In this document: piece after piece, positions 11,504 through 35,026 of the stretch
How the letters are laid out: every line of letters begins with the position of its first letter
How positions within the stretch are numbered: position 1 is the stretch's first letter
From: an uncultured Gammaproteobacteria bacterium
GTDB lineage: Bacteria; Pseudomonadota; Gammaproteobacteria; JACCXJ01
DNA: 64,000 bases
Assembly (NCBI GenBank): GCA_963764725.1
Contig: CAVXTM010000016.1
Location: forward strand, 288,001 to 352,000
Direction of reading: 5' to 3'
Notes under the pieces: generated by a model
What the model was told of the DNA's origin: nothing
The model's database searches: none
The model's input: the letters and a program-made list of their open reading frames with translations, nothing else
Position numbers and translations under genes: made by a program

Positions 11504-11654
11504 CTCAGAGATTGTGAATTAATCTACTGCGCATCCCGATCGCTGCGGCGCGTGCTCGCTCGCTCCTCGCCTATCTACCGGATATGTCTCGTCGCTTGCT
11601 CCGCGGCTCCTTGCGCTCGGGCTTGCTCGATAAGATTTATTCACAACCTCTTAG
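11504..11654. mobile_element. Non-coding MITE-like element, about 151 bp
   Basis: 22-bp imperfect terminal inverted repeats CTCAGAGATTGTGAATTAATCT / AGATTTATTCACAACCTCTTAG; three partial copies elsewhere in the window. Confidence 0.75.
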
Positions 11655-11701
11655 TTAACAAATGCCGGACGAAACCGGGAGGCCTCCCTGCGCGCAGGGA
11701 T

Positions 11702-13428: not shown

Positions 13429-15275
13429 CGGCGCAACACCCGATCGAGGTGCGAGCGAAACGTCTCCGGCTCGACGAACCCGACAAGACGTTTGTTGCGA
13501 AGCTCGGTACCGTCCGGTGTGTAAAAAAGCAAGGCCGGCGGCCCGAAGACTCCGAGGCTCGCAAGCAGCTCGCGGTCCTCCTTATCATTGGCAGTCACGT
13601 CCACTTTGATAAGCGTTAATTTGCTAAGTTGTTGACCGACAATTTGGTCGGCAAAGGTATGTTTTTCAAGCTCTTTGCACTCCACACACCAGTCCGCGTA
13701 AAGGTCTACCATCACCGGCTCGGCACTATCGCGGGCCGCGCGTAACGCCTTTTCCAAATCCGCCGCGCCTTTGACCCGTGCGAAGCTCAGCGTGAGTGGC
13801 GTCGCGGTGGATCCCTGCGCCAAGAGTGTGGCGCCCGCGAATGGACGCAACATATCGGTGGCCCCCGCGGCCGCGCCGACGATTAAGAGACCGCCGTAAG
13901 TCAAAACCAAAAACCCGGCGCCGCGCGTCAGACGGTGACCCCATGACGCGGTTTTATGGAAGAGATCGAGGGCCCCGAAGAAAATCGCCCCGGTCGTCAA
14001 TAACAGCCCCCATAACAATACGGTGAACGCCGGCGGCAGCAAGCGTTCCAGCATTAAGACTGCGACTGCGAGCATCCCAAACCCGAAGAACGCCTTGACC
14101 TGTTGCATCCAGGGCCCGGCTTTGGGCAGTAGCTGCCCGGTCGAGGTACCCACCGCTATCAGCGGCAATCCCATGCCTATGCCCAAGCAAAAGAGCGCCA
14201 TCCCGCCGAGCACCGCGTCACCAGTCTTACCGATATAAATCAAGGCCCCGGCCAGAGGCGGCGCCACGCAAGGTCCGACGATCAGCGCGGAGAACAATCC
14301 CATCGCCGCGGTTCCCTGCAAGGTTCCGCCTGCTTGCGCGTTGCTCGCCCGGGCGAGGCGCGTCTGCCAACTTGGCGGGAGTTGTAGCTCGAACCAACCG
14401 AACATCGACAAGGCGAGGCCGACAAAGACCGCAGCAAAGAACACCAGCACCCACGGATTTTGAAACGTCGCTTGCAAGTTGTGGCCGAAGCGTCCGGCGA
14501 TCACCCCCATGAGCGCGTAGGTCGCGGCCATCACCACGACGAATACGCTCGATAAAATAAATGCCTTGCGCGTAGTTACGTGCTCGCCTTGACCGGCGAT
14601 GATTCCGGAGAGAATCGGGACCATGGGAAACACGCACGGTGTAAACGCGAGGAGGATCCCGAACCCCGCGAACATGGCCAGCGTCGCGAGCACGGCGCCG
14701 CTTTCGAGTTGCCGCGCCAACGCATCGTGCTCGGCAACGGGTTCGCTTGCTTCCCCGGAAGCGGCGCCGGCCGCCACGTGCGCTGGCAATCGCAGGCTGA
14801 GCGTTTTCTGCATCGGAGGGTAGCAGATCCCGTCGTCGGCGCAGCCCTGATACCTAAGGGTTAAACCGACCTCGGCCTCGCCGGGGCCTGGGCGTCTGAG
14901 CGACAGCGGGACCGTGATGGACCCGGTATACACCTCGACGGATCCGAACTCCGGATCTTCCTTGAAGTGCCCCGAGGGAAGATTAACGCGCCCGAGCCGG
15001 ACGTCGCCGTCGGTCAGGTCAAATCCGAATTTATCCTTATATAGGTAATAACCGTCGGCGATGTCCCAGCGCGCGGCAAGGGTCACCGGATCTTTGATGT
15101 CGACCGTGATCCGAAATGCTTCGTCGGGAGGTAAAAACTCCCGGCGGGCCGGTTCGCCCGCGAAACCGCGCTTAAAATCCTCGAATATATTTGCCGCCCC
15201 GCGTTGTTCGTCGGCAAACACAGGTAGCAACGTTCCAAACAACCAAACGAAGCAGACAGCGCTGACGGTCTTCAC
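13425..15275 (-). CDS. dsbD: Protein-disulfide reductase DsbD
   Basis: YQGCADDGICYPP, FTPCVFPMVP, VGPCVAPP, ADWCVEC. Confidence 0.96.
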   Translation of the reverse strand: MKTVSAVCFVWLFGTLLPVFADEQRGAANIFEDFKRGFAGEPARREFLPPDEAFRITVDIKDPVTLAARWDIADGYYLYKDKFGFDLTDGDVRLGRVNLPSGHFKEDPEFGSVEVYTGSITVPLSLRRPGPGEAEVGLTLRYQGCADDGICYPPMQKTLSLRLPAHVAAGAASGEASEPVAEHDALARQLESGAVLATLAMFAGFGILLAFTPCVFPMVPILSGIIAGQGEHVTTRKAFILSSVFVVVMAATYALMGVIAGRFGHNLQATFQNPWVLVFFAAVFVGLALSMFGWFELQLPPSWQTRLARASNAQAGGTLQGTAAMGLFSALIVGPCVAPPLAGALIYIGKTGDAVLGGMALFCLGIGMGLPLIAVGTSTGQLLPKAGPWMQQVKAFFGFGMLAVAVLMLERLLPPAFTVLLWGLLLTTGAIFFGALDLFHKTASWGHRLTRGAGFLVLTYGGLLIVGAAAGATDMLRPFAGATLLAQGSTATPLTLSFARVKGAADLEKALRAARDSAEPVMVDLYADWCVECKELEKHTFADQIVGQQLSKLTLIKVDVTANDKEDRELLASLGVFGPPALLFYTPDGTELRNKRLVGFVEPETFRSHLDRVLRR

Positions 15276-15607
15276 GGGGTTGCGTTCACCATTTCGTTAA
15301 TCCAGCTTAAATACGGGCTCGAGCCTCGCACTATAGGGACCGCGATGATTTCGGGGAGTTCATACGGATGTTCCGATTTTAGCAAGGATTCCACCGCCTC
15401 GTAACGCCATCGGCGGGTTTTGATCAAGAGCAGGACTTCGGCACTCGATTCGAGCTTATCGGCCCAGCGGTAAATCGAGTGCACCGCGGGAAGGATATTG
15501 ACGCAAGCGGCGGCGCGTTGTTCGACCAACCGGGTAGCTATTCGGCCCGCGACCGCGTTGTCGGGGCACGTCGATAGCACGAGGAGGTAGTCTTCGGCAT
15601 CCGTCAT
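15272..15607 (-). CDS. cutA: Divalent-cation tolerance protein CutA
   Basis: [20 protein letters not shown]. Confidence 0.95.
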
Positions 15608-19625: not shown

Positions 19626-20957
19626 TCAGCCACGCTCCTCCACGGGCAGGAAGGGCCTGGCCGCGGACCCTGTATAGCGCTGGCGCGGACGGCTGATTCT
19701 CTGATCGGTATCCGCGATCATCTCCTTCCACTGCGCGACCCAGCCGACCGTGCGGGCCACGGCAAAGAGCACCGTGAACATGCTGGTCGGAAAGCCCATA
19801 GCCTTAAGGATGATCCCGGAGTAGAAATCTACGTTAGGATACAGCTTGCGCTCCACGAAATAGTCATCCTCAAGCGCGATGCGTTCCAGTTCCATGGCGA
19901 TCTCCAGCAGCGGCTCCCGGATGACGCCAAGTTCCGCGAGCACCTCGTGACAGGATTCACGCAGCACCGCTGCCCGCGGATCATAGTGCTTGTAGACCCG
20001 ATGGCCAAAGCCCATGAGCCGCAGCGCGCTGTTCTTTTCCTTGACCCGCCCGATAAACTCGGGGACGCGATCCTTGGAGCCGATTTCCTGCAACATTGTG
20101 AGCACGGCTTCATTCGCCCCGCCGTGGGCCGGGCCCCAGAGCGAGGCAATACCCGCGGCGACACAGGCAAAGGGGTTGGCACCGCTCGAGCCGGCCGTGC
20201 GCACGGTTGAGGTAGAGGCATTCTGTTCGTGATCGGCATGCAGGATAAAAATCCGGTTCATCGCGCGCGCCATGACCGGGCTGAGCTTGTACGTCTCGCA
20301 CGGCACGGAGAACATCATTTGCAGGAAATTGTCGGCATACCTCAAGTCGTTGCGCGGATAAACGAACGGCTGGCCGATGGAGTATTTGTAGGCCATGGCG
20401 GCGATGGTCGGCATTTTGGCGATGAGCCGCTGCGCGGCGATCTTGCGCTGCTCAGGGTCGGTGATGTCGGTGCTGTCATGATAGAACGCGCTCAGCGCCC
20501 CCACCACGCCCACCATCACGGCCATGGGGTGAGCGTCGCGCCGAAAACCACGGTAAAAGGAAAGCACCTGTTCATTGAGCATGGTGTGATAGGTGATGAT
20601 ATCCTCGAAACCGGTCTTTTGACTGGCGTTTGGCAGTTCGCCGTAAAGAAGCAGGTAGCAGACCTCGAGGAAATCACAATGCTCGGCGAGATCCTTGATC
20701 GGGTAGCCGCGATGCAGAAGCACCCCCTGCTCGCCGTCGATGAAGGTGATCCGTGATTCGCAGCTCGCGGTCGAGGTAAACCCGGGGTCATAGGTGAAAT
20801 AGCCAAGCTCGCTGTAGAGCTTACGGATATCGATGACGCTCGGGCCTAGGGTGCCGCCGAGCAAGGGCAGTTCCACCCGTCTTCCCGAAGCCTCATCGAT
20901 GAGCGCGATGGTCGCGGGCCCGGAGGCCGGATCCGGTATCTCGGGTGTTTGACTCAT
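19626..20957 (-). CDS. gltA: Citrate synthase
   Basis: [46 protein letters not shown]. Confidence 0.97.
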
Positions 20958-20969
20958 AGATAATCCTCC

Positions 20970-20985
20970 ATTCACAACCTCTTAG
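20970..20985 (+). repeat. Partial copy (right end) of the MITE-like element
   Basis: ATTCACAACCTCTTAG is identical to 11639-11654 and abuts the gltA RBS. Confidence 0.65.
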
Positions 20986-21302: not shown

Positions 21303-21674
21303 CTACCCCGCCGTAGACACACGGGCGAGGGCGTCGCGGATATCCACGACGGCTGCGAGCGGATCGACCAGGCAGGCAGGTTCGTGAGCGATCCCGGCCG
21401 CCGATAATCGGTAGGCGATCGCCGGGCATGCATGGACCACGCGCACACGCGCGCCGCTCCGCCGCGCCCACTGACAAAACATAATGAGCCAATTGAGACC
21501 CGAGTCGCGCGTGTCCGTCACATCGGCCAGATCGATGATGTAGTTCTCATGGCGGTTTCGCTCCGGCTCGCAATACTGCCAGAGCGCGAAACCGTGCGAC
21601 AAATCAAAATGACCCATGGCGCTCAGCGTGACCGTCTTGCGATCCGCCGATAACGTAATGGTAAAGGCTGCCAT
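21303..21674 (-). CDS. STAS-domain (anti-sigma antagonist-like) protein
   Basis: GHFDLS, YIIDLADVTDTRDSGLNWL resembles the STAS D-L-x-x-V-x-x-x-D-S-S-G-L motif; RBS AGGAG. Confidence 0.75.
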   Translation of the reverse strand: MAAFTITLSADRKTVTLSAMGHFDLSHGFALWQYCEPERNRHENYIIDLADVTDTRDSGLNWLIMFCQWARRSGARVRVVHACPAIAYRLSAAGIAHEPACLVDPLAAVVDIRDALARVSTAG

Positions 21675-21711
21675 CGTCGTCTCCTAGCGTTTCGAGATTA
21701 ATAGCACCTGC

Positions 21712-21771
21712 ATTTAACCCTAGGCCCGTACGCCGCGCAATATGACAAATTGCCGCGCGTCAATTCGTCGC
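21712..21771 (-). promoter_or_regulatory. Tandem RegA/PrrA-like boxes and promoter of the STAS gene
   Basis: Minus strand GCGACGAATTGACGC-GCGGCAATTTGTCAT-A-TTGCGC-17bp-TTAAAT. Confidence 0.55.
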
Positions 21772-21785
21772 AGCTTGAACGCCAT

Positions 21786-21835
21786 GGGGTGCGACAATTT
21801 GTCGCATTTTAAAAGGCGATCGCCATTGCTATGAT
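21786..21835 (+). promoter_or_regulatory. RegA/PrrA-like box plus promoter pointing into an unannotated gap
   Basis: GGGGT-GCGACAATTTGTCGC-A-TTTTAA-17bp-TATGAT with TGn extension. Confidence 0.65.
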
Positions 21836-21881
21836 TGCCGGGGCTGAAGGACAGAAGATGCGAATATCGCAAAACGGAGAA

Positions 21882-21911
21882 GGAAAGAAAGGCCGCGCCA
21901 GAGGCGCGGCC
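21882..21911 (-). terminator. Rho-independent terminator downstream of csp
   Basis: GGCCGCGCC-TCT-GGCGCGGCC followed by TTTCTTTCC on the minus strand. Confidence 0.65.
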
Positions 21912-22027
21912 ATAAAGCGCGGTGGTGAGAGACGAGTGTCGAGGCCGCTAAACCTGAAAGACGCTCGAATCTTCCACTACGTGCCGGAGCCCTACGGCCT
22001 TGCTAGGTCGCTGGCCCTATGCACAGC

Positions 22028-22510
22028 TTAGGCTACCTTCTTGACTTCCCGCACCAAGGCGGCGCAGGCCTCGGCACAGTCCGCACAGCTCTGGTGCTTG
22101 GAGGCGTGTTTGCGGCATTCCTTTTCGCAGTCTGCACAGACCGCGGCACACGCGTTGGCGAACGCCTTCGTGTGTGCCGAATTACTTGCGCTCAACTGTG
22201 CCAGGGCATTGCACGCCGCGATGGTCTCTTGTACCGCGACCGCGCAGCTCGCGAGCGACGTGTCGCCGCCCTTGAAGGTGTTGATGCAGTGATTGAGGCA
22301 AGCGTGCCCCTTGGCCATGCAGGTTTCGGCGGCCATCATGAGGCCGCTGTACTGCCAGCTATGGTGATTGGCCGCCGCGAAGGCTCGCCCGGTGCCGGTC
22401 ATGAGCGCGGCCGCGCCCACCGCCGTGGCGCCGGCGAGGAATTTCCTGCGCGCGGACTGACAGGGGGCGTCACCGGTCTCCGGATGGGTATTTGAATGTA
22501 ACTCGGACAT
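22028..22510 (-). CDS. csp1: Tat-exported Cys-rich four-helix-bundle copper storage protein (Csp1/Csp2-like)
   Basis: Twin-Arg SARRKFL signal; 12 Cys in the mature part, many in CxxxC/CxxC spacing; RBS AAAGGAG. Confidence 0.85.
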   Translation of the reverse strand: MSELHSNTHPETGDAPCQSARRKFLAGATAVGAAALMTGTGRAFAAANHHSWQYSGLMMAAETCMAKGHACLNHCINTFKGGDTSLASCAVAVQETIAACNALAQLSASNSAHTKAFANACAAVCADCEKECRKHASKHQSCADCAEACAALVREVKKVA

Positions 22511-22705
22511 ATCAGCTCTCCTTTCAATATGGATGGATAAAGGGTTGCGCAGGCGTGTAACCCCAGTGTCGCTAGGGTGTTGCGGCGCTTTCGGTTGATG
22601 GGATGGCGGAGGAGAGCTGATTTTCCTGCCCATCCCGGACGAAAGCGTCGCACCTTCTCGGTACGCGGATCGCACGGAGGCGCAAACCCGCCAGGGATTA
22701 TATCA
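22511..22705 (-). promoter_or_regulatory. Extended -10 promoter and ~180-nt structured csp leader with anti-SD
   Basis: TG-A-TATAAT at 22705-22697; 22610-22621 is perfectly complementary to RBS region 22511-22522; long hairpin 22581-22652. Confidence 0.55.
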
Positions 22706-22772
22706 GACCGCTAGATCTCTGGATACTATTTATCTTCTATCTTCGCCGGGCGGCGTTCTGATGGCGCTGCGC

Positions 22773-24326
22773 TCAACGAACCAACAGATCGGTACCGTAC
22801 CAGCCGACGATGACGTCCCGGTAATGTTCGGCCTTCCGGGTTTGGAGTCGTTCGAGGGGATTGAAATTGTCCGTCAGAGTCACGCCTTGGGTCTCGTTCA
22901 CCGCGACGATCCGGTTCTTCAGCCACGCTGCTTGCTCTGCTCGGAGTCCCGGGGAGTTGAGGTCGATGGGTCGGCCAGCCGCGAGGAAGATGAAGTCGTT
23001 GAAATCCTTGCCGGGTTCGGAAATAAAGACCGAGTGATGGGGAAACACCTGCGCGATGGTGCGCCCGACGGACGCCAGGGCGGCATTCTGGCCGCCCTCC
23101 GAAAAGGCCACGAAATTAAGAGCGAGAATGCCCTGGTCTGACAGGAGCCCGCGCAGTTGAGACAAAGTCTCGACGGTCAAGAGGTGCACCGGTTCCGATC
23201 CTCCGGTGAAGCAATCATGGATGATCAAGTCGTAAGGGCCGGTCAAGCGGCCGATTTCATAACGTGCGTCACCCACCATGGCTTGGCCCGTGGGTTCAAA
23301 CCCAAAGTATTCGGACGCGGCGCTCGCCACTGCCGGATCGATCTCCAAAGTGTCGGTCACGATCCCGTAGCGGTCACGCAGCGTCGTTGCCATATGGCCG
23401 GCGCCCTGGCCGATGAGCAAGGCCCGTGTCATGTTGGGCGCCAAGGCCGGAATCAAATGAACGATCTCCTGGTAGGTGAGCCGGTTGTCGCCACTCGATA
23501 TGCTGGCGGCGCCGATCGTCGAAGCATCCGACATGAGAAGACGAAGATCGCCTTCTCTTTGATCAATCACCCGCACCCAACCGTACAGGCTTTCCCGCTC
23601 GGAACGGATTTGAAAGGGTTCCCCGCCGGTGTAAGCACGCCCCGCGCCGATGGCTTGGGGCAGCAATCCGATCCCGATCGCGGCCAAGAGAACACTGGGC
23701 AGCACGGCGGCGGTTCGCCCCAAGCGCTTTTGCTCATAGATCGCCACGGCCACGGCCAGCGCGAGCAGAGCTATACCCAGACCGATCAGGATCTGGCGTG
23801 AGCCCACCAAGGGAAACAGAAAGAAGCCCAATACCAAGGTGCCGACAACGCTCCCGAGCGTACTGACGGCATAGATCGAGCCGGCGCTGGAACCAACGCC
23901 TTCCAAGCGTGAGGTCGCGAGCTTGATGGCATAGGGCCCAACCATGCCTAGCATAGTCAGACTGGGCGAGAACAACACCAGCGCGCTCACGAAGGCGCCC
24001 GCTCGCAGGCCCAAAGGGTCGGTCGCCATCAAGACCGGCCGGGTTACCCACGGGATTAAGAGTGTAAACAGGGCCGCGAGTGAAATGACGAGTGAAAGTC
24101 CGGTGCGCTTCGCCCGGTCAGCCCACCGGCCGCCGGCAAAATAACCAATGGCAAGCGCGATCAACGCCACGGAAATCAGCGATGACCAGACGTAGAGGCT
24201 CACGCCGTAGAACGGGGCGATGATGCGCGTACCCAGAAGCTCGATTACCATCACCGCCGCTCCGGTCAGGAACACGGTCAGATAAAGCCCGGCACGTTCG
24301 TAGACGTGCAGTGGTTTGTAAGACAT
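22773..24326 (-). CDS. Fused membrane domain/spermidine synthase-like SAM-binding protein
   Basis: About 7 TM (VMVIELLGTRIIAPFYGVS, GSIYAVSTLGS), then LLIGQGAG, LEIDP, GDAR, YDLIIHD, LTDNFNP. Confidence 0.85.
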   Translation of the reverse strand: MSYKPLHVYERAGLYLTVFLTGAAVMVIELLGTRIIAPFYGVSLYVWSSLISVALIALAIGYFAGGRWADRAKRTGLSLVISLAALFTLLIPWVTRPVLMATDPLGLRAGAFVSALVLFSPSLTMLGMVGPYAIKLATSRLEGVGSSAGSIYAVSTLGSVVGTLVLGFFLFPLVGSRQILIGLGIALLALAVAVAIYEQKRLGRTAAVLPSVLLAAIGIGLLPQAIGAGRAYTGGEPFQIRSERESLYGWVRVIDQREGDLRLLMSDASTIGAASISSGDNRLTYQEIVHLIPALAPNMTRALLIGQGAGHMATTLRDRYGIVTDTLEIDPAVASAASEYFGFEPTGQAMVGDARYEIGRLTGPYDLIIHDCFTGGSEPVHLLTVETLSQLRGLLSDQGILALNFVAFSEGGQNAALASVGRTIAQVFPHHSVFISEPGKDFNDFIFLAAGRPIDLNSPGLRAEQAAWLKNRIVAVNETQGVTLTDNFNPLERLQTRKAEHYRDVIVGWYGTDLLVR

Positions 24327-24353
24327 GTGGATTGAACAGGCCTTTACCGCCCC

Positions 24354-25337
24354 TCAGGGTTCATCGAGCACGGCAAAGGCCGGCGCATCCCGCGCGCGGC
24401 TCGGTGGTGCCACGCATCCTTCGCTACTGGCTGGCGCCGCGAGCGAGCCACCGGCTTCACCGTGCACGTCTACCCAGAAATGCGGCAAACCCATGCCCGC
24501 CAGCCATGCCGGGCCGGCAGCCTCCTTGAGCATGGCAATCGTCGAGGCACTGCCCGCGATGAGACACAGATCGCCAACTACGCTGACCGACGCCAAGTGG
24601 CGCACCGGCCAACCGGTTTTCGGGTTGAGGATATGACCGTAACGCACACCATCGAGCACGATGCAACGCTCGTAGTCACCGCTACTGGCAAGCCCGCCGT
24701 GGTGCAACGAGACCGTTTGTATGAGGGCCCCCGGACGACGGGGATGGCGTATGCCTATCCGCCACGGGTTGCCATCCGGTCGCGGCCCGATGACCTTGAT
24801 GTCGCCGCCTAAATTGACGTGGCCGGATCGGGCGCCGGCCTCGTAGCATAGCGTTGCTGCCCGATCGACGGCGTATTCCTTGACGACACCGCCGAAATCA
24901 ATCTCCATGCCCGGCAGTGGAAATTCGAGAACGGGAGGTGTCCAGCGGAGCCGGTGCCACCCGACCTTGCCGAGTAGGCTTTGGATCTGCGCCCCATCGG
25001 GCAGCGCGCCTCGATCGAAGCGCCACGCGCGACGCAATATACCAGAGCTGATGTCGAAGAGCCCATCGCTCTCACGGTAACAGGTCGCGGCGTAATTGAG
25101 CAGCCCAACAGTCTCTTGGTCTACGGAGATGCTTCCCCCACGGGATGCCACGCGATTGATCTCCGATAGAAAGCTGTCGCTGCGAAAGCGCGAATAACGC
25201 GCTTCCAGCCGGTCGACTTCAGCGATGGCGATGCCCGCAATGCGCTCGGCTTCTGCATGGCTTGTGGCAAAGAGCTGGATCTCACAGGGAGAGCCCATCG
25301 CCTTGAAAGCCAAGCGGTAAGACCTCATGCCGTTCAT
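24354..25337 (-). CDS. apbE: FAD:protein FMN transferase
   Basis: AMGSPC, SDGLFDIS, IDFGGVVKEYAVD, NLGGD, ASSGDYER, HILNPKTG. Confidence 0.92.
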   Translation of the reverse strand: MNGMRSYRLAFKAMGSPCEIQLFATSHAEAERIAGIAIAEVDRLEARYSRFRSDSFLSEINRVASRGGSISVDQETVGLLNYAATCYRESDGLFDISSGILRRAWRFDRGALPDGAQIQSLLGKVGWHRLRWTPPVLEFPLPGMEIDFGGVVKEYAVDRAATLCYEAGARSGHVNLGGDIKVIGPRPDGNPWRIGIRHPRRPGALIQTVSLHHGGLASSGDYERCIVLDGVRYGHILNPKTGWPVRHLASVSVVGDLCLIAGSASTIAMLKEAAGPAWLAGMGLPHFWVDVHGEAGGSLAAPASSEGCVAPPSRARDAPAFAVLDEP

Positions 25338-25493
25338 GTTCAAAACCACGTTCGCGGTCGATGTAGCCCGGGTCGAACGCAGCCCCGCCCCGCCGCGGTG
25401 AGTGCCCGCGACTAGTCCCGGTCGCTCAAGCGGTGGCGGAACGTAGCTACGCCACATATTCTCAGGCACATGACGCACGCTAAACAAGGCCCA

Positions 25494-26498
25494 TCAAAAC
25501 GTCAGGCTGAAGCTCACGAACAGTGAGCCGTCACGTTCGAGCTGGAACCCGTTGAAGTCGTCCTCCACGGGTTGCAGCCACTCGACGCTCAAACGGTTGT
25601 CCTTAAGCCCGGCGATCGGAATCTCGGCGCTGAGCCCGAAGCCCACGTCCCAGAACTGCCCGCCGTAGTTCTGCGGGAAGTCCACCGGGCTCAGTTCCGA
25701 GTGCACGTCGTTGAACTCGCCCGTGATCTCCCCTTGCGTCGTGTAAACGCCGCGCACCGAGGCGGAGAGCCAGTCGAACAGGCCGATGCTTCCCCAGGCG
25801 GTGGCCTGGAACTGATTGCCCAACGCATAGCCCGACTCGTTCGCGTTCTCGAGGCGATCGATGCCGCTCACTTGCCCCCCCCACGACCAGCGCCCCCACG
25901 CGCCCGTGTAGGTGAGGTTCGGCAGCAGATCCCAGGTGCCGCTGCCGAGCTGCATGCCATAGTGATAAAAGCCTTGATCCGTTTGATGGCTGCGTCTGAG
26001 CTGCTCGTCGACGGAGCCGGTCGGTGCGCTCACGCCCAGAGCCAGGTGCAGGTGATGTCCGGGCACATCCAACAGTTTGAAGAGCGCGTACATGGAGGTG
26101 TCACCGACGCCGCCCGTGGCTTCGGAGTGGAGCACATGGTGCTGTTCACTGCTGTCGAGCTGAGCGCCTTCGAGGGCCTGCATCGACATCTCCATGTCCA
26201 CGAACTGCGGCATGAGCATCAGGTTCAGCCAGTCGGTCGGGGCGTACATGATGTCGATCATGTGCATGTTCATGGTGTGGTCGACCGGCTTCACTTTGCA
26301 CGGCACCGAGCCACAGCCATTGCTGGTGATGACGGCATCGCCGACGGCGTCCGAACCGCGCAGGATGTTGCCGTCCTGACTGTGGTACATGTAGCGGTAG
26401 TCGACCATGAAGTCGCCGGCCTCGGGCAGCATGTGGTCGAGCATGACACCCGCCGGCGCGTGGCCGTGGGCGTGCGACGTGGCTATCGTGGGCGTCAT
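25494..26498 (-). CDS. His/Met-rich outer-membrane beta-barrel, probably the C-terminal half of the DUF3570 protein
   Basis: HAHGHAPAGVMLDHM, HTMNMHM, MQLGSGTWD, C-terminal Phe; no signal peptide of its own. Confidence 0.7.
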   Translation of the reverse strand: MTPTIATSHAHGHAPAGVMLDHMLPEAGDFMVDYRYMYHSQDGNILRGSDAVGDAVITSNGCGSVPCKVKPVDHTMNMHMIDIMYAPTDWLNLMLMPQFVDMEMSMQALEGAQLDSSEQHHVLHSEATGGVGDTSMYALFKLLDVPGHHLHLALGVSAPTGSVDEQLRRSHQTDQGFYHYGMQLGSGTWDLLPNLTYTGAWGRWSWGGQVSGIDRLENANESGYALGNQFQATAWGSIGLFDWLSASVRGVYTTQGEITGEFNDVHSELSPVDFPQNYGGQFWDVGFGLSAEIPIAGLKDNRLSVEWLQPVEDDFNGFQLERDGSLFVSFSLTF

Positions 26499-28181
26499 GG
26501 TGCGCCGCCGGCAGCGGACAAGGCTGCGTCGAGGCTGACATTCAACGCCGCATTGACCTGATAGTAGTTGAAATCGGCATAGTCGCCCTCACCACCTCCG
26601 CCGAGCTTGAGCCCGCCCTCATGGGTGTAATACTCGAAACCGGCCTCGAGACTGATCCCCCTAGCGAATTCCTTGCTCACGATCAATCCGCCGCTCAAGG
26701 CCCCATAGCCCGACAGGCGGTGGTCGCTGGAGAAGTTGGCCGGAAGTTTTTTCGGATCGAACGGGATGATTGTGACGTCTCCCGTCAGGTCATCAAAAAT
26801 GAACTGTTTGGTATGCTTGCCTGGAGATGAGAAACGGCTGATAGAAATCGGCGGCGTCTTGCGAGTAATAGCGAATCCAGGGCATCACGGTCCAACCCCG
26901 GCCTAGCGGTTGACCCCAGCTCGACTCGAGGGTGTGGGCATCGATCCCCCAATCATCGGAGTAGAAGCGGTATCCGAGATGCAGGGCCGCATTCAATGGT
27001 TCGACATACTGCACATAGCGCGCGTCCCAAGTCCATTGGTTACGCGTATCGGGCCGCTGTTCCAGGAGGGCCTGAACTTGCCCAAAAAACCCGCCGGGAG
27101 GTGCCAAGAACTGTTGCTCGGGATCGATGAACGCGACCTCCATCACCTTGTAGGGGTTCGCCAGATATCCTGTGCTGCGGGTATAACCGAGGGTGGTCTC
27201 GATGAGCGAGTCATTGGTCAGGACCTGCGTCAGACCAAAACGCGTAGCCCAATCCTGTCGATTGCCCTCCAGGGTGTCGATGCTTAAATCCGTCGTGTTT
27301 GGCACCGGCGTCTTTTCAATCTGGTCCGTGTATGCGGAGGTATCGATGTAGGGAAGAGCGTCGTGATCGAGTATGGCCTCGGTGTCGCTGGCGGTGTAAC
27401 TCAAGCCCAGGTTCAAGGTGGTGCGCTTCTGATTGAGGTCCCAGCGCCCGCCCAGGCTGCCCCATCGCGATTCATAGTCGTTCTCCAGGGAGATGCCACC
27501 GCCCACATCCAGCGCCGCCTCGTTCCACTCGTAGCTCAGCCCGAAGTCCCCCTGCTTGCGCGCCTCGGGTGAGGCGAAGGAGATCGTATCCACCAATTGC
27601 CCGTTTTTTTGAAAGAGCTGGTTACCATCCTCGTCGAAGAGTACTTCGAGCGGGTTGAATTGAGAATCGAAAAACAGATCACCATTGATGAAAGGCGTCG
27701 CCCCGGAGACCCCATCCGGGGCTGTGGGACAATTCCCCCCCGAACAATTAAAGCCACCGGAAACAAGTCCCTGCGGTGCGGTGGCGATCGGCGTGGCCCC
27801 GGACCAGGTGTCCTGGACGTAGTTGGCAAAGAACTTCAGCCGATCGAAGAGCGTGAGGCTAGCGCTGCCATGGAGGCTGTCCACCAGGATAGGATCGAAC
27901 GCGCTCTTCACGCCGAAGAGGTTACGTTCACTCTCTTGGTAGCGGCCATACTGAAAGTTGAAATCGTCACCCTCGGCGGCATGAGCAGGTGAGGGAGTCA
28001 GGCCGGGCAAGGCCAGAGCGGCGGCCGTCAGCGCCCGCGAGGATGCGCTTGCCTGCGTCAATGATTGCGGTCCGGTGGCCGACCGCCGCCCGAAGCGACG
28101 CGGTAAAAGTAGCCCTGCGAGGTGCCGAAATGCGCCGCGCAGGCTAGTAACAGCCACACCCGCCGCCGGCGGTGGACCCAC
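26495..28181 (-). CDS. DUF3570-family outer-membrane protein, frameshifted near 26800
   Basis: AALALPG, DTWSGAT, DGVSGAT, ENDYES, GYLANPYK, EQRPDTR, YRFYSDDWGIDAHT, RYYSQ; continues in the next frame as IFDDLTG..FSSDHRLSGYGALSGG to the stop at 26495. Confidence 0.8.
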
Positions 28182-28368
28182 CGGCCAATGCGGCCTCGCG
28201 GCTCATGTAGGTGTGCACGCGTAAGGCGCGCAACGCGGGGTTGGGTTCCAAGGCCATGTGCGGCTTGGCGAGATTGCCGCGTTCCCACGGGGCTACCGGC
28301 GCGCAGCCCGGTAGCCCGATAGCCAGCCCAAGTAGAAGCGCCGTCAGCACCCAGTTAGATTTTTTCAT
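28144..28368 (-). CDS. DUF4266 lipoprotein
   Basis: Lipobox LPGC, VAPWERGNLAKPHM, C-terminal GGGCGCY. Confidence 0.9.
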   Translation of the reverse strand: MKKSNWVLTALLLGLAIGLPGCAPVAPWERGNLAKPHMALEPNPALRALRVHTYMSREAALAGGSTAGGGCGCY

Positions 28369-28398
28369 ATAGGGCTTTTCGTCGAACCGACCGAGCGC

Positions 28399-28893
28399 CT
28401 ATCCGCCCTCGGGACGCTCCGCCAACAACTGTTCCACCAGCCCACGGAGCTGCTCAGCCTCTCCGCGCCGAAAGCCTAGGTGCACGTGGCGAATGATACC
28501 CTGGCGGTCCACCAGATAGGACGACGGCATCGCTTGGACGCCGAAGTCTCGGGGACACTGCCCGTCCGCATCGACAGCGACGGTGAAGCTGGCCGGGTGT
28601 TTTTCAAGAAAGGCCTTCGCATCGTCGGGTTTCTCATCCAAGTTGATCCCCAGAACGTGCAAACCCTGTCCCCGCAACTCGCTGTCCAGATCGTTCAAGA
28701 ACGGAAAGGACTGTGCGCAGGGGGAACACCAGGAGGCCCAAAAATCGACATAAACAACCTTGCCGCGCAGTTGCCGCATGTCATAGCGTTGTCCATCGCC
28801 GACCGGGGTCAATGAACAGTTAGGCGCCGCCTGACCAGCTTCGAAACTATAGACGTTCGAATAAACCGCGAGCGCCAGTGCGGTGAGAAGCAC
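28399..28893 (-). CDS. TlpA-family thioredoxin-like protein (5' end uncertain)
   Basis: VYVDFWASWCSPC, QAMPSSYLVDRQG; in-frame TAG just upstream of the GTG. Confidence 0.88.
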   Translation of the reverse strand: MLLTALALAVYSNVYSFEAGQAAPNCSLTPVGDGQRYDMRQLRGKVVYVDFWASWCSPCAQSFPFLNDLDSELRGQGLHVLGINLDEKPDDAKAFLEKHPASFTVAVDADGQCPRDFGVQAMPSSYLVDRQGIIRHVHLGFRRGEAEQLRGLVEQLLAERPEGG

Positions 28894-29015
28894 CTATGAG
28901 CGGGTTGCACTAATTCGCAACGGCAGGAAGTCATAGTCCTTAGCCATCATCTTCGGATCCAAGTAGCAGCCCGCGACCAAGCGCCGCCAAGCGCCGAGCT
29001 CAGCGAATCACCGGC

Positions 29016-29448
29016 TTACTGATTCTGCGTCTGGTAATTGACGTCCCGGTGTGAACCCCCGTAGCGGTTTCGCAATGGTAATTCGAGCGTGTAATTATTT
29101 ACGCCGCCGCGGATTTATCGACGTTATACGATGTACGCCCCGACGCCACTGTTATTGTAGCACCTTTGAGGACTATACGCTGCGTTTCCACCGATGGGAT
29201 CCGTGCTGGTCGTGGAATGCCGCCCTTGTCGCGTCAACCTGCACCAGTGACGAGCCCGCAGTGTCGTCCTTCACGCGTGATCGTGAAGACGGACAGAGTT
29301 CGTGGAGCACGTGACGGGTAGATCATCGGTCGCGCCCGCCGCGGAAAGGAGCGATCCGATCTTTGAATCGCCAGACGCGATACGGCGTGTGCCTACCGCG
29401 ACCAGCAACGATGCGTGCGAATGCGCTCTTAAAGAAAGTATTTTTCAT
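29016..29448 (-). pseudogene. Multiply frameshifted gene for a small secreted protein with a YHC..HTGT motif
   Basis: RBS AAGGAG; fragments across frames MKNTFFKSAF / SLLVAVG..GSLLSAAGATD..VTCS / STDPIGGNAAYSP / NVDKS / NYTLE / YHCETATGVHTGTSIT / QNQ-stop. Confidence 0.6.
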
Positions 29449-29586
29449 ACATATTCATAATAGTCTCCTTCAGTCGTTAATCGGGAAAAACGGTGACCTG
29501 GGTATACTAGAGAAGCACTGACGGTCGGGTACGGCGGGAAATCGCCGGCTCGAGGAGAGCGGAGCCTGCCCGTTACGTCCCACTCG

Positions 29587-30561
29587 CTACTCACGTCGCG
29601 GTGCTCGCACGGCGCGATGTCCTATCTCCTCCAGTTTCATGGCGGCCAATACACGCACCGTCTCGTCGGTGTCAGCCAGCGCGTCTTGAAGTAGTGCGGC
29701 GCTCTCCGCATCTGTGCCGGCAGCTGTCCACCGCCATCAGCCTCACCGAAGCGTCGCTATCGCCCAGGGCACTGCGCAGCACATTCATGGCCTCGGTCTC
29801 CGCCATCTTTCGCCAAGGCGTAAACGCCCTGCGCCCGCACGCTCCCGTCCTCGTCCGTCAGCGCGGTCCGAAACACCGCTTGTACCGCAGGATCGTTGCG
29901 TTTGCTGCTCGCAGCCAGGCTGCCCAGCGCCTGCATCCGCGCTTCGGATCATCGGCCGTGCTCAGGTCCATGAGCATATTGAATCGTCATGCTCTGCCGC
30001 CGCGGGATCTTTACTCGTCGCTTGCTGCGGGGCCGCCCGCGAACATTCCGCACCGGTGTCTCCACAACGACCCCATTGCTACTACTGCTACCGTCGGGAG
30101 GTCCGGGCGGCTCCTAAAAGCCACACGTCCGAAGGCAGGGATCGGTCGCAGACTCCGCTCTCTCGGGGGCATAGCGCACTATGCTGCGCGGCGTCACGCC
30201 CAAAAAGACACTCGAGTGCACGCGTGAGGCGTCATGCGCTGGCAGGAGAGCCGTGACCACGCCTTCGGGCGTCACTACGTCATGGAAGCGGGTACCCGTT
30301 TTCTGCCGAATTCGCCGAGCACCTCTGTCCACGGGGCCCGCGTGACATTCAAGCTCATCAGTGCCGCGATGGAGCTCGATTTCCACCGATGCGGAAGGCC
30401 CTGCTTTCAAAAGCGCTCGAGACGGCGTGTCAGGCCCTGCGATAACATGGCTGTTCCACAGCATCATTCCCGGCACCAACGAAAGCAGCCCGACCTCCGC
30501 CAGCCCGTCTCTTACGCCGCGTTCGAGTACTGCTCATCGAATAAACACCCTGCGTGGCCAT
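29587..30561 (-). pseudogene. Multiply frameshifted HEAT-repeat protein gene
   Basis: ALTDEDGSVRAQGVYAL, ALGDSDASVRLMAVDS and ALADTDETVRVLAAMKL lie in three different frames. Confidence 0.65.
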
Positions 30562-30594
30562 GTCTGCTGTCGTTCTAATTCTCCGACCGTTCGG

Positions 30595-30644
30595 AGTCTA
30601 TGATTCGTAGCCGCGCTTGTAAATGCGACAAATTGTCGCACCCC
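30595..30644 (-). promoter_or_regulatory. RegA/PrrA-like box plus promoter of the leftward operon
   Basis: Minus strand GGGGT-GCGACAATTTGTCGC-A-TTTACA-17bp-TAGACT; 24 bp identical to 21786-21809. Confidence 0.7.
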
Positions 30645-30756
30645 CACACTCAACATCGAGACCGGGGAGCGGCAAGTCACCGGTACGCTATCCTGCTTTT
30701 GCCTTTCGTTAATCCCGTAGTTTATATAATAGAACTCTGGTCATGGAATCAGTTCC

Positions 30757-30806
30757 GGGGTGCGACAATTTGTCACATTCACACGCGATGCTCAGTGAGA
30801 TAGTCT
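30757..30806 (+). promoter_or_regulatory. RegA/PrrA-like box plus promoter of the rightward gene
   Basis: GGGGT-GCGACAATTTGTCAC-A-TTCACA-17bp-TAGTCT. Confidence 0.7.
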
Positions 30807-30925
30807 TCTTAGCAGGGAACAGCTAGTGATGCAGGGTACGACCAGTTGTCTCTGGCGTGCTTTTTAGTTGGTAGAAACCAGTTATATCTGTTCTGTGAAT
30901 CCATAAGTCAATACAGGAACCATTT

Positions 30926-31715
30926 ATGCCAAGCTTAAACATAAGAAGACTGACGATGTGCTCGCTGACGACCTTGCTGTGCACCGCAGGGCCGAATGTC
31001 TTTGCCCACACCGGCGTTCAGAATGCGGCTGACCGCAGGGACGACGACCTATAACGGTTTCACGATAACGCACGGCTGTGGCGGCCATGATGAGACGAAG
31101 CCTCCGTTGAAGGTGTTGGGACAGTCGGCGGTGTTTCCGTTCGGAGTCGCCGTGTGGACGAACCTCAACCCACCGGTGAAATCATACCGACGGGTGGCCA
31201 GGGTATCGTCAGCGAGGACAGATGATTTTATCACTCTCAATGTCGGCGGTATTCAGGATAACGATCCCTTCGCAAAAACAGAGGAAGAGACGGATGATCT
31301 TGAAAACGTGCGTGCGCTCAATTGGAAGAATGGCAAACTAGCGACCAACCTGGTCGGTATACCCGAGTGGCGGGCATCGGCGCCGACCATTCTGGATAAT
31401 TGCGTGTCGGCATTGCACGTGCGTATCGCGGTTGCCAACTGGTGCAAAAAGAACGCAAACGAAAAGAACGACCATGCTAACAACCGGGCCGACTGGTGGT
31501 TCACGGGACCGGACCAGACCGGGAGCACGCAGTTCGTCGATCCCGATCTGGTTCAGGAGGACTTCTGGACGACATTGACCGTTAACAACCCGGGCAACCC
31601 GGACGCCCCTGCATGCACCGGGGAGACTCGCGAGGTTGCGGTCCAGCCGACGGGTGCGGACATCGATACCTACCTGCCATACAAGCCGTTCACCAAGAAT
31701 CCGGGACCGTATTGA
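30926..31715 (+). CDS. Secreted protein with predicted N-terminal His and HGC motif (YcnI-like), frameshift near 31028
   Basis: ATG 30926 after AGGA; signal ends NVFA then HTGVQNA; continues in another frame as GTTTYNGFTITHGC..RADWW.. Confidence 0.7.
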
Positions 31716-31797
31716 TCCCGAGATCGTAGGAGAGTAGGAAAGCGACCGGCAGCCGAAGCCGCCTTCTAACTCGGTGGCCGGTCGTGGTGTAGCCCTT

Positions 31798-31831
31798 GTC
31801 CCAGGACCCTCGCTCGCGAGGGTCCTGGGAC
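31798..31831. terminator. Perfect long hairpin downstream of the YcnI-like gene
   Basis: GTCCCAGGACCCTCGC-TC-GCGAGGGTCCTGGGAC; weak U-tract. Confidence 0.5.
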
Positions 31832-32137: not shown

Positions 32138-35026
32138 ATGACCGCGCCTTCTCACGCCGCACCCGCGTTGACTCCGGAATTGGCTTCGGAGGCGAAGCGG
32201 TATTGGGACCAATTCGCTGAGGCAATCCCAAGGTCACCGCTAGGCACCGTCGTTGAGGAGGCACACCGGCAGAACATCATCCGAGTGTGCGTGTGCAGTC
32301 CGTTCGCCGCGCACTATTTCGCGAAGGATCCAAGCCGCCTCACGCAGCTTCTCGAGAGCGGCGATCTCGACCGCGGTTTCGGCGAACAAGAATATCCCGA
32401 ACGGATCAAGCGTGCTGTCGCCGGCGCGCCGGACCAGGCGGCGCTCATGCGCGCTCTTCGCCAGGCACGTTACCGCGAATTCGTGCGCATCACCTGGCGC
32501 GATATCACCGCAGCCGCCGATCTCGATGAAACGATGGGAGATCTCTCGCGCTTTGCCGATGCCGCACTCGATGGTGCGCTCGGCTGGCTTTACCGAAAAC
32601 AAGTGGAAACCTTTGGCGCCCCGCGGGATATTGATGAGACGGCCCAGTCGCTGGTCGTGATCGCGATGGGCAAGCTCGGCGCCCATGAGCTCAATTTTTC
32701 CTCGGACGTCGATTTCATCCTTGCTTATCCGCGCGCCGGGGAGTCGCATGGCGGAGCACGCTCGATATCCAACCAGGAATTCTTCAACCGCCTGGGCCAA
32801 GCCTTGATCAAAGTGTTGTCGGAAGTTACCGAGGATGGATTCGTGTTTCGTGCGGACATGCGCCTGCGGCCGTTTGGCGACAGCGGGCCGCTGGTGTTGA
32901 ATTTTGACGCCATGGAGGCGTACTACGTGACTCATGCGCGCGATTGGGAGCGCTACGCCATGATCAAAGCCCGCATCGCCGCGGGGGATAAGCCGGCCGG
33001 GGAGAATCTGCTGGAGCGGCTGAAACCGTTTGTCTATCGCCGCTATCTCGATTTCGGCGCGATCGAGGCCTTACGCGACATGAAACGATTAATCGATAGC
33101 GAGGTGACGCGCAAGGGGCTTGCGGAGAATATTAAGCTTGGGCGAGGAGGGATCCGCGAGATCGAGTTCATCGGGCAGACCTTTCAACTAATCCGCGGCG
33201 GACACCGGCCGGCGCTGCGCGACCGCCGCATTCTGGCCGTTCTCGAGTCCCTCGGGAACCTAAACTATCTGCCCGCGCCCGCCGTTGCCGAGTTGACCGA
33301 AGCTTACCGCTTTTTGCGCCAGACGGAACATCGCTTGCAGCAAGTCGAGGACCAGCAGACTCATGTCTTGCCGAGAGGGGAGATAACCCGGCAGCGCGTG
33401 GCCTTGGGAATGGGGTTTAACGATTGGCCGAGCTTTCATGCGGCGCTCACACGGCACCGGGAGCGCGTTCAAACCCATTTCGATGCGCTCTTGGTCGGGC
33501 CGCACGATCCCGCCGCCAACGGTCCGCCGCTCATGCTGGCGCCGCAGCCGTGGCAGGGGATGGCCGACACCGCATCTCTATTACGCTGGTTGGAAGGCGC
33601 GGGGTTCAGCGATCCGCCCTCGATACTCGCAAGCATCGAGAAGTTGAGTAAAAGCGGGGGCGTGAGGCGGCTCAGCAATACCGATCAAATGCGGCTGGAC
33701 CGGGTCCTGCCGAAGCTGCTTGAGGCCATAACGCGGGTAGCCGAACAGCCAACGGTGGCTGAACGCCTATTGACCATCGTCGAGGCGATAGCGCAACGCA
33801 GCGTCTATCTGGTTTTGCTCGATGAGCATCCCGGCGCGCTCGAGCAACTGGTGCGCCTGTGCGCGGCCAGCCCCTGGATCGCGAATCGTATCGCCCGCCA
33901 ACCGCTGCTGCTCGATGAGCTCATCGATCCGCGCACACTCTATGCGCCGCCGCGGGTGAGCGAGTTGAAGCGGGATCTCGCCGAGCAGTTAGCGCATTTG
34001 GCGCGCGGGGATCTCGAGCAAGCCATGGAGATTCTGCGGCATTTCAAGCATGCGCAGGTCCTGCGCGTCGCGGCGGCCGACGTGGCCGGAGTGCTGCCCG
34101 TGCGCAAGGTCAGTGATCACCTAACCGGGATCGCCGAAACCGTGTTGCAGGCGGCCTTGGAAATCGCGCGGGACACCATGGCGCAACGCTATGGTGAACC
34201 GATGTGTGGAGACGGCGCGGCGCGGCGCATCGCCGGTTTTGCGATCATCGCCTACGGTAAGCTCGGCGGCATTGAGCTCGGTTACGGATCCGACCTGGAT
34301 CTCGTCTTCTTACACGATAGCTGCGGCGATGAGCAGCAGCCTGGCGGGCCGGTGCATCACCAAGAATTCTTCACCCGCCTGGGGCAGAGGATCATTCACA
34401 TGATAACCACGGCCACGGCTGCCGGAAAAGCATATGAGATCGATACCCGGTTGCGGCCGAGCGGGTCGGCGGGGTTATTGGTTAGCAGCCTCGATGCGTA
34501 TCGCGAGTACGAACAAGCGCATGCGTGGACCTGGGAGCATCAAGCGCTCGTACGGGCGCGCGCAATCGCGGGAGATCCGAATACCGTACGCGAATTCGTA
34601 CACCTACGGCGTGCCATCCTCGGCCGGCCTCGCGATGAGGACCGGCTCCGGCACGATGTGCGGGAGATGCGCGAGCGGATGCGCCGGGAGCTGTCCCGCG
34701 ATGCGCCCGGGGACTTCGATATCAAGCACGGGCAGGGTGGTGTCACCGAGATCGAATTTGTGGTGCAATATGCGGTTTTACGCTGGTCTGCTCAGCACGC
34801 AGAGCTTGTGGATTTCACCGACAATCGCCGTTTGCTGGAACTCTTATCGCGCCTGCGGCTGTTATCGGACGAGGACTGCCAGGCTTTGCAAGAGGCTTAT
34901 TTCGCTTACCGTGCCAAGCTTCACGCCTTGGCGTTGCAGGAGCGGCCGGCCTTGGCCGACAATGCGGAATTCGGCGCCCAGCGTGCAAGGGTCGGTGAGG
35001 CGTGGCGCCGGGTGATCGGGGCATGA
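32138..35026 (+). CDS. glnE: Glutamine synthetase adenylyltransferase/adenylyl-removing enzyme
   Basis: Two NT domains: MGKLGAHELNFSSDVD and YGKLGGIELGYGSDLD; DMRLRP and DTRLRP. Confidence 0.96.
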   Translation: MTAPSHAAPALTPELASEAKRYWDQFAEAIPRSPLGTVVEEAHRQNIIRVCVCSPFAAHYFAKDPSRLTQLLESGDLDRGFGEQEYPERIKRAVAGAPDQAALMRALRQARYREFVRITWRDITAAADLDETMGDLSRFADAALDGALGWLYRKQVETFGAPRDIDETAQSLVVIAMGKLGAHELNFSSDVDFILAYPRAGESHGGARSISNQEFFNRLGQALIKVLSEVTEDGFVFRADMRLRPFGDSGPLVLNFDAMEAYYVTHARDWERYAMIKARIAAGDKPAGENLLERLKPFVYRRYLDFGAIEALRDMKRLIDSEVTRKGLAENIKLGRGGIREIEFIGQTFQLIRGGHRPALRDRRILAVLESLGNLNYLPAPAVAELTEAYRFLRQTEHRLQQVEDQQTHVLPRGEITRQRVALGMGFNDWPSFHAALTRHRERVQTHFDALLVGPHDPAANGPPLMLAPQPWQGMADTASLLRWLEGAGFSDPPSILASIEKLSKSGGVRRLSNTDQMRLDRVLPKLLEAITRVAEQPTVAERLLTIVEAIAQRSVYLVLLDEHPGALEQLVRLCAASPWIANRIARQPLLLDELIDPRTLYAPPRVSELKRDLAEQLAHLARGDLEQAMEILRHFKHAQVLRVAAADVAGVLPVRKVSDHLTGIAETVLQAALEIARDTMAQRYGEPMCGDGAARRIAGFAIIAYGKLGGIELGYGSDLDLVFLHDSCGDEQQPGGPVHHQEFFTRLGQRIIHMITTATAAGKAYEIDTRLRPSGSAGLLVSSLDAYREYEQAHAWTWEHQALVRARAIAGDPNTVREFVHLRRAILGRPRDEDRLRHDVREMRERMRRELSRDAPGDFDIKHGQGGVTEIEFVVQYAVLRWSAQHAELVDFTDNRRLLELLSRLRLLSDEDCQALQEAYFAYRAKLHALALQERPALADNAEFGAQRARVGEAWRRVIGA

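Follow-up and report, generated by a model that had tools for sequence, protein, structure and literature searches.

The window analysed here, a 64,000-nucleotide stretch of the genome of an uncultured gammaproteobacterium (contig CAVXTM010000016.1, positions 288,001 to 352,000), contains at 21303-31715 a gene cluster that we interpret, with roughly even confidence, as an envelope copper-handling system built on the ApbE/DUF3570/DUF4266/thioredoxin module and probably working by flavin-driven reduction of Cu(II) and passage of Cu(I). This interpretation draws on sequence comparison and structural models. A copper function is suggested because the cluster encodes two secreted protein families whose mature forms start with histidine (one with a YcnI fold) and a barrel with invariant methionines and histidines, because the copper storage protein Csp1 occurs in it in two unrelated lineages, and because its carriers depend on copper enzymes. 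Gene families, barrel fusion, folds, conserved residues, linkage, taxa, the operator and a model of DUF4266 inside its partner barrel were all obtained by computation; new among these are the fusion of the barrels, the linkage to the two His-start families, the distribution among methanotrophs and ammonia oxidisers, and the three pmoA-type loci of this genome.

The cluster lies between two housekeeping genes, citrate synthase (19626-20975) and glnE (32138-35026), and comprises a leftward gene run and one divergent gene, here called His1. A previous reading of this DNA, made from the sequence alone, had described such a run, and every gene family that it named is present at the positions below; four of the genes, however, are not open frames and had to be stitched across frames, and the STAS-like assignment is weak. 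Features are on the minus strand unless marked (+) or (.).

21303-21674: small STAS-like protein that forms a separate transcription unit behind operator copy 1
21790-21806 (.): operator copy 1 (TGCGACAATTTGTCGCA), in the gap that separates csp from the STAS-like gene, identically placed in locus L017
21891-21911: terminator-like hairpin downstream of csp, 9 G-C pairs and a T-rich tail (consensus match only)
22028-22675: predicted four-helix copper storage protein of the Csp1 family, exported by the twin-arginine (Tat) route; likely start 22510 (MSELH)
22773-24326: major facilitator superfamily (MFS)-like membrane domain fused to a spermidine-synthase-like domain; NF037959, 201.4 bits against a cut-off of 40
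24354-25487: ApbE flavin transferase without signal peptide; PF02424, 239.6 bits; likely start near 25337
25494-28181: DUF3570 barrel fused to a His/Met-rich 12-strand barrel, in pieces 28181-26802, 26800-26519 and 26474-25497
27696-27803: two-motif flavinylation loop of DUF3570 (DTWSGATP, DGVSGATP); WSGAT at 27792-27803, VSGAT at 27696-27707
28144-28368: DUF4266 lipoprotein (lipobox Cys22, C-terminal CGCY); PF14086, 72.9 bits
28399-28893: TlpA/ResA-like redoxin with WCSPC; Redoxin, 93 bits
29019-29462: remnant of a small secreted protein, no open frame here; mature start His, end ..HC..HTGT..QNQ
29590-30644: remnant of a HEAT-repeat protein, secreted or anchored, with 13 frame-breaking gaps
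30624-30640 (.): operator copy 2, immediately next to the promoter-like site of the leftward run
30761-30777 (.): operator copy 3, which has one mismatch and lies upstream of His1
30926-31715 (+): YcnI-like secreted His1 protein (AHTGV..., THGC), mature start His; frame change near 31031
13425-15275: DsbD, in a cutA-dsbD-redoxin operon outside the cluster

The core of the cluster is of a published flavinylation type with no assigned substrate, as the sequence-only reading had recognised. The portions of the survey by Meheust et al. (eLife 2021, PMC8238504) available to us describe DUF3570 as flavinylated by ApbE at two [S/T]GA[S/T] sites and clusters in which ApbE and DUF3570 occur with DUF4266 (with CXC) and a thioredoxin-like protein as common, 227 of them with DsbD and 316 without; they call the function of these clusters 'uncertain', guess at iron for 25 that carry a VIT1 iron transporter, and report expression of the system from a signal-peptide-truncated apbE. 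The cluster in the window resembles those described in these portions in combining ApbE, a two-motif DUF3570, a DUF4266 with C-terminal CXC and a thioredoxin-fold protein, and in having no DsbD of its own, as in the 316. It differs from them in that DUF3570 is fused to a Met/His-rich barrel, ApbE has no signal peptide, the thioredoxin-fold protein is of the Redoxin/AhpC-TSA type whereas the paper names PF13899, and the gene set is enlarged by two His-start secreted families, the HEAT protein and the MFS/spermidine-synthase fusion, with Csp1 as a further addition in some lineages.

DUF3570 was matched in two pieces (PF12094, 324.2 and 30.8 bits), with SGAT at residues 127 and 159. The motif core GA[ST]P is constant across the fusion proteins (28 of 28 for motif 1 and 27 of 28 for motif 2). 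None of the other proteins of the window's cluster bears [S/T]GA[S/T], which lends no support to an action of ApbE on the MFS fusion next to it.

In DUF4266, residues C22, M38, H52, C71 and C73 are invariant, as is the CGC at 71-73 (24 of 24 sequences). Its complex with DUF3570 was modelled with DUF4266 inside the barrel, at a score of 0.84 in all three runs and 0.00 for the best control; this score was attained by 58 of 80 solved complexes and by 2 of 110 mismatched pairs. The runs, made with our own alignments, agreed to at least 61%, the partner having a predicted local distance difference test score (pLDDT) of at least 64, and the contacts fall on alternate, lumen-facing strand residues. 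The modelling thus supports binding of DUF4266 inside the DUF3570 barrel. The DUF4266 gene also overlaps the start of DUF3570 by 38 bases (28144-28181), which suggests that translation of the two is coupled. Plug-in-barrel complexes of the outer membrane include the MtrAB electron conduit (6r2q) and LptDE. The present model is like them in placing a small partner inside a large barrel and, for MtrAB, in the idea of electrons crossing the outer membrane; it differs in having no haems, the carriers instead being two flavin mononucleotides (FMN) and the CGC motif if the electron path proposed below is right, and the likeness is one of architecture only.

The redoxin of the cluster scored below the equivalog cut-offs for both ResA (103.3 against 170) and TlpA (58.8 against 230) and, judged by sequence, is a TlpA-like redoxin with no named orthologue. 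A paralogue of it, a second TlpA-like redoxin (12880-13428), is encoded with dsbD in the cutA-dsbD operon region (12880-15607). DsbD may be the source of electrons, as had been supposed; its gene belongs to an ordinary cutA-dsbD operon more than 13 kb from the cluster.

The DUF3570 protein and the His/Met barrel form a single open reading frame (ORF) in 29 of 33 loci. The His/Met-rich ORF of the window (25494-26498) has 16 His and 16 Met in 334 residues, and the residues invariant among relatives include H560, H577, M586, C617, C622, M631, M633, H634, M635, M639, M649, M651, M657, M659, H705 and H707. The fusion was modelled as two barrels, in which residues 69-548 resemble barrels of 16-18 strands (BamA, Z 21.2; PelB, 19.9) and residues 572-893, with 12 strands in the model, resemble the COG4313 channel Pput2725 (4rl8; Z 23.1, root-mean-square deviation (rmsd) 2.8 over 252 of 268 residues) and also FapF; MtrB ranked third among the Foldseek matches of the fusion model. 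The COG4313/PF13557 channel shares the 12-strand architecture, whereas here the domain stands behind another barrel, has a His-rich linker and bears motifs of invariant His, Met and Cys. The copy in the window matched no Pfam family at E up to 5, and neither did a PDB sequence search with its ORF yield anything usable; PF13557 was matched by the stand-alone barrel relatives and by 2 of the 120 fusions listed.

The sequence-only reading took the divergent gene to encode a copper protein that begins with His, and structural comparison agrees with it. The His1 family numbers about 90 clusters in a large protein collection, all from metagenomes or metagenome-assembled genomes (MAGs) and none with a Pfam domain. 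In an alignment of 41 members, H28 (the first mature residue, the same in all 41), H49, two Cys pairs (C51 and C185 among the invariant cysteines), W203 and W226 are invariant or nearly so. The AlphaFold model (pLDDT 87) has YcnI as its top Foldseek match (E 5e-4), and a structural aligner gave YcnI chains Z scores of 10.8, 10.7, 10.3 and 10.1 against 6.3 for the next fold; the superposition has an rmsd of 3.0 over 126 of 129 residues and puts model residue 28 on chain residue 27. A PDB sequence search with His1 gave nothing usable. In YcnI (DUF1775) of Bacillus subtilis (PDB 7me6, 7mek, 8um6), His27 together with Glu50 and Trp137 binds Cu(II), according to the part of the report available (PMC8424229). 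His1 shares with it the fold and a signal peptide followed by a His aligned with His27, and tryptophans are conserved. It differs in being about twice as long, through insertions, in its two conserved Cys pairs, in lacking a C-terminal membrane helix, and in not lying beside copCD. Its second invariant His lies 21 residues past the first, against 23 residues for Glu50 of YcnI, and may take the place of that Glu, which would suggest a two-His brace.

The small secreted protein likewise has His as its first mature residue; H31, D45, C51, K118, C132 and H139 are invariant and H131 is found in 90% or more of the family. Neither its sequence nor a profile brought up anything usable from the PDB, and no known relatives emerged. 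For the HEAT gene, HEAT_2 and HEAT match 27 of 27 relatives; an assignment of its N-terminal domain as STN-like found no support in Pfam or the PDB. The His-start families are further expanded in one Methylomicrobium locus (L062:10001-13489), where the cluster opens with two paralogous YcnI-like His1 genes of 343 and 236 residues, and the small His-start protein, 146 residues long, is preceded by a 275-residue protein that looks like a tandemly duplicated form of it.

Csp1 is reportedly the copper storage protein of methanotrophs, from work on Methylosinus. The copy in the window scores 118.3 bits with TIGR04401 against a cut-off of 100, the only copy in the genome above it, and carries a twin-arginine signal (RRKF) followed by 12 Cys, its Cys-rich helical body being about 120 residues long. 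It is thus like known Csp1 in family score, Tat signal and helical body; it differs in that a flavinylation cluster shares its operon and its operator, a context absent from the openly accessible literature searched. Csp1 lies within the cluster here and in genomes G004, G009 and G013, and also in G217, which belongs to a different family, where it scores 131.8 bits with TIGR04401 and stands beside the MFS fusion. Between Csp1 and the TlpA-like gene of G217 (L099:5386-7449) there are two secreted His-start proteins (AHA/HVDY and ASA/HVGY at the cleavage site) with tails of PEP-CTERM/VPLPA type. The MFS/spermidine-synthase fusion is next to ApbE in G217 as well, and in 20 of the 46 and 28 of the 80 loci surveyed below, many of which are cut by contig ends. 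The STAS-like ORF is weakly matched (STAS_2, E 0.0014 and 19.2 bits against a cut-off of 29.2; STAS, E 0.0039 and below cut-off) and recurs in G004 (L017) and in one of the 80 metagenome loci.

We surveyed linkage in two sets of loci. A scan for His1, counted by tblastn with one genome per species, gave 46 loci, many cut by contig ends, of which 33 are named Methylococcales or Crenothrix, nine Chromatiales or Gammaproteobacteria MAGs, and four others. The small protein occurs in 39 of them, DUF4266 in 35, DUF3570 in 34, the His/Met barrel in 33, the TlpA-like protein in 31, HEAT in 30, ApbE in 24, the MFS fusion in 20, Csp in two and Pmo in none. In the 18 loci with 9 kb on each side the counts are 18 for the small protein, 16 each for DUF4266, DUF3570, the barrel and the TlpA-like protein, 12 for HEAT, 11 for ApbE, 10 for the MFS fusion and one for Csp. 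Among 80 metagenome loci anchored on the fusion, DUF4266 was found in 75, the TlpA-like protein in 70, the small protein in 65, ApbE in 62, His1 in 48, HEAT in 31, the MFS fusion in 28 and Csp in one. The linkage of His1 to the flavinylation genes, proposed from the window alone, is therefore widespread (16 of the 18 fully covered loci and 48 of the 80 metagenome loci). In Methylococcales all cluster genes are co-oriented, and in L062, for example, they lie between glnE and an aminotransferase, the genomic place being as here.

The carriers are mostly methanotrophs. The fusion family has at least 1194 clusters, its named carriers including Methylobacter, Methylovulum, Methylocaldum, Methyloglobulus, Nitrosococcus halophilus, Nitrosococcus oceani (Noc_1224) and MAGs of Nitrosomonas and Methylophilaceae. 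The genome under study has three PF02461 (pmoA/amoA-type) loci, one flanked by ORFs at the usual places of pmoC and pmoB (by position only), and PF02461 was found in all 14 genomes of its family, compared with 1 of the 26 other sampled families (unpublished genomes and close kin included). Of 401 genomes sampled evenly across the class, 35 have the His/Met barrel, 14 of 400 have PF02461 and seven have both; the fused form occurs there in this family, in G352 (PF02461 present), in G217 and in G179. The association with copper-monooxygenase bacteria is strong but not exclusive. The guess of a methane or ammonia oxidiser, made from the window alone, is borne out by the three pmoA/amoA-type loci, the methanotroph carriers and the fusions of Nitrosococcus and Nitrosomonas. 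PmoCAB adjoins the cluster in none of the 46 and none of the 80 loci.

A shared operator bracketing the cluster had also been proposed, and the genome search confirms the repeated sequence. A 17-base palindrome, TGCGACAA[A/T]TTGTCGCA, occurs at 21790, 30624 and 30761, with 0.07 matches expected by chance and a count as high in 0 of 100 shuffles; no other site in the 4.2-Mb genome comes within one mismatch. Weaker sites at C16:82415 (two mismatches) and C14:12874 (three mismatches) were taken as chance because they lie among mobile-element-like ORFs. The promoter-like site for the leftward genes is TTTACA-17-TAGACT (30623-30595). The exact palindrome is confined to loci of this genome's family, where clusters of different arrangement have it in every promoter gap; L014 and L015 (the latter from the unpublished genome G009), both rearranged, have it upstream of csp. 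In the relatives' loci we found no regulator gene conserved beside the cluster, and the label 'redox-regulated', which the sequence-only reading had attached to the system, gained no support.

From these observations we infer copper as the substrate, the direction of its transport, the path of the electrons and the roles of the HEAT and MFS/spermidine-synthase proteins. The thioredoxin-like protein, reduced by housekeeping DsbD, would supply reducing power to the CGC motif of DUF4266, which would act as a plug inside the DUF3570 outer-membrane barrel. Two FMN on the long DUF3570 loop would hand electrons to Cu(II), and the Cu(I) formed would then traverse the fused, Met/His-lined 12-strand barrel to be captured in the periplasm by the His-start proteins, YcnI-like and small. 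In this lineage Cu(I) might be stored in Tat-exported Csp1 for particulate methane monooxygenase (pMMO), the 17-base palindrome linking the transcription units, csp included, in this family.

How copper reaches the membrane monooxygenases of methanotrophs without methanobactin, and of ammonia oxidisers, is a long-standing question, and the DUF3570 flavinylation system is widespread with no known substrate; the cluster links this gap to the copper question. A stronger claim, that the system is a cupric reductase of the outer membrane joined to a Cu(I) channel, the first of its kind in bacteria, in which the plug and two covalent flavins conduct electrons through one barrel and the other lets the reduced copper in, that it is the main copper route to pMMO and ammonia monooxygenase in gammaproteobacterial methanotrophs and methanobactin-free ammonia oxidisers, and that it supplies the missing substrate of DUF3570, seems to us possible but rather doubtful. 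Were it true, the orphan flavinylation system would gain its substrate. Methane oxidation in soils, caves and sediments is under the control of copper supply, and models of the methane sink would be affected by a new route of uptake. The double barrel, the plug lipoprotein, the two His-start families and the leaderless ApbE are concrete candidates in cultured strains. We found no report of the cluster in a copper or methanotroph context in the literature searched, a search whose scope was literature other than subscription journals and supplements.

Several results weigh against the copper interpretation. Periplasmic ApbE enzymes carry a signal peptide or lipobox. Neither a signal peptide nor a hydrophobic leader was found in any of 27 ApbE genes of such clusters by a simple hydropathy test (not a trained predictor), and in many of them the domain is preceded by no more than 10-16 residues. 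Flavinylation must then come before export, or the target must differ, and with ApbE leaderless in 27 of 27 its target could be another protein; this is unexplained and complicates the electron path. Strict [S/T]GA[S/T] is absent at both sites in 12 of the 33 fusion proteins listed, the first residue being G, A or V, and the fusion model has a mean pLDDT of 69, with the flavin loop below 50 and of low confidence. An intact relative of His1 matches no Pfam family at E up to 5, PF07987 included, Glu50 of YcnI is not conserved as Glu, and the small secreted protein has no Pfam family. Around seven stand-alone relatives of the His/Met barrel (ten neighbourhoods fetched) we found no copper genes. 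Met/His-rich outer-membrane proteins also serve copper export, and the inward direction proposed here is tentative. The linkage of csp, on which the sequence-only reading had relied, holds in this family and in the unrelated G217, but elsewhere extends to only 2 of 46 His1 loci and 1 of 80 metagenome loci. The absence of adjoining pmoCAB from every surveyed locus is a further point, as is the lack of a PF02461 match in G217 and G179, two of the three fusion carriers outside the family in the class sample; it follows that the system is not tied to copper monooxygenases. Lastly, four genes of the cluster (the DUF3570/His-Met fusion, the small secreted protein, HEAT and His1) are not open frames in this assembly.

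The broken frames may reflect a fault of the assembly or decay of the locus, a question that concerns the state of this copy and not the function of the family. The fusion gene runs through frames -1/-2/-1, His1 switches frame near 31031, and the small secreted ('YHC..HTGT') and HEAT genes are covered by no ORF of at least 60 residues. Relatives of the same genus have intact copies (small secreted protein 149-160 residues, HEAT 321-362, His1 258-271, fusion 893-902), as do G004, G011 and G013; more broadly the fusion ranges from 844 to 1052 residues and the HEAT protein from 274 to 362. Frames were compared with L012 (G005) and L013 (G008), both flagged unpublished, and with L011 (G003), which is not so flagged. 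Against the intact L012, frame-breaking gap runs number 13 in HEAT, seven in the small secreted gene and three in His1, and zero in the adjoining 5.4 kb of cluster genes; the alignment indicates that a 2-base gap may also strike the N-terminal signal region of the redoxin.

On one explanation HEAT, the small secreted gene, His1 and the DUF3570-barrel gene are true pseudogenes and the system is dead in this genome only, which we regard as the lesser possibility, though a serious one. It would fit the concentration of 23 gap runs in three neighbouring genes next to 5.4 kb with none, the integrity of the rest of the window's genes, and the genome's having a single DUF3570 locus. The third pmoA/amoA-type copy (G000:C3:34673-35361, L021/L022) is split as well, with PF02461 positions 7-54 and 73-234 in separate ORFs; this is another frameshift in the assembly, and it may be counted for decay too. 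Against decay, the third-position share of substitutions in the broken genes (0.40-0.48) matches that among intact relatives (0.41-0.44), and these genes resemble L012 as closely or more closely. The indels, insertions and deletions alike, are of one base each and fall outside homopolymers, as is typical of uncorrected long-read sequence, and a shifted 95-residue middle piece of DUF3570 retains 89% identity. Since the indels came without extra substitutions, we favour a local assembly or sequencing fault as the likelier explanation of the pattern. Among public sequencing runs the highest share of sampled words was at most 0.15, and no RNA run was listed among those sharing this DNA; contigs assembled from four runs represent relatives only, some of them without the extra bases at 26475, 26499, 29123, 29450 and 31033. 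None of these runs contains this strain.

Turning to function, the evidence for copper (YcnI fold, His/Met residues, Csp1) applies equally to copper tolerance, in which the Met/His barrel would export or buffer Cu(I), the His-start proteins and Csp1 would sequester periplasmic copper, and the redox module would repair or protect thiols and methionines. Copper resistance is associated with outer-membrane proteins rich in Met, PcoB/CopB among them, and the multicopper oxidase and Cu/Zn superoxide dismutase in relatives' flanks suit tolerance as they do the proposed uptake. We nevertheless consider tolerance unlikely: the carriers are organisms of high copper demand, no efflux pump (P-type ATPase or resistance-nodulation-division) was seen in the surveyed clusters, and no CopB/PcoB Pfam family was listed at E up to 5. 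The nearest metagenomes (cave, soil, sediment) share DNA with this genome at small fractions only and so provide no habitat evidence for it. It is equally unlikely that the cluster is a general outer-membrane redox module unconcerned with copper, for instance in iron reduction or repair of oxidised envelope proteins, with unrelated roles for the His-start proteins: the available portions of the published survey leave the function open and record 25 clusters with VIT1 (PMC8238504), the stand-alone barrel relatives lack a copper context, and the COG4313 family is linked to uptake of hydrophobic molecules in the part of the report consulted (PMC4493636), but the His/Met motifs are invariant, the YcnI-like fold has a conserved N-terminal His, two unrelated lineages have Csp1 within the cluster, and carriers are enriched among copper-monooxygenase bacteria.

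Genes for a two-domain multicopper oxidase (L012:12474-13463, from an unpublished genome), a Cu/Zn superoxide dismutase (L014:19295-19966) and a Spondin_N protein (L014:2490-3323) lie within a few kb of the cluster in relatives. Genes of toxin-antitoxin type (DUF5615, BrnT/CopG-like and, by eye, a PIN-like ORF) separate His1 and glnE in relatives (L011:9962-11820, L012:9575-10021), an insertion that the window is without. Beside the intact copies in G013 there are short, degenerate pieces (L014:6209-6328 and 11650-12305) of ApbE, DUF4266, DUF3570 and the His/Met barrel, which look like scars of rearrangement or duplication.

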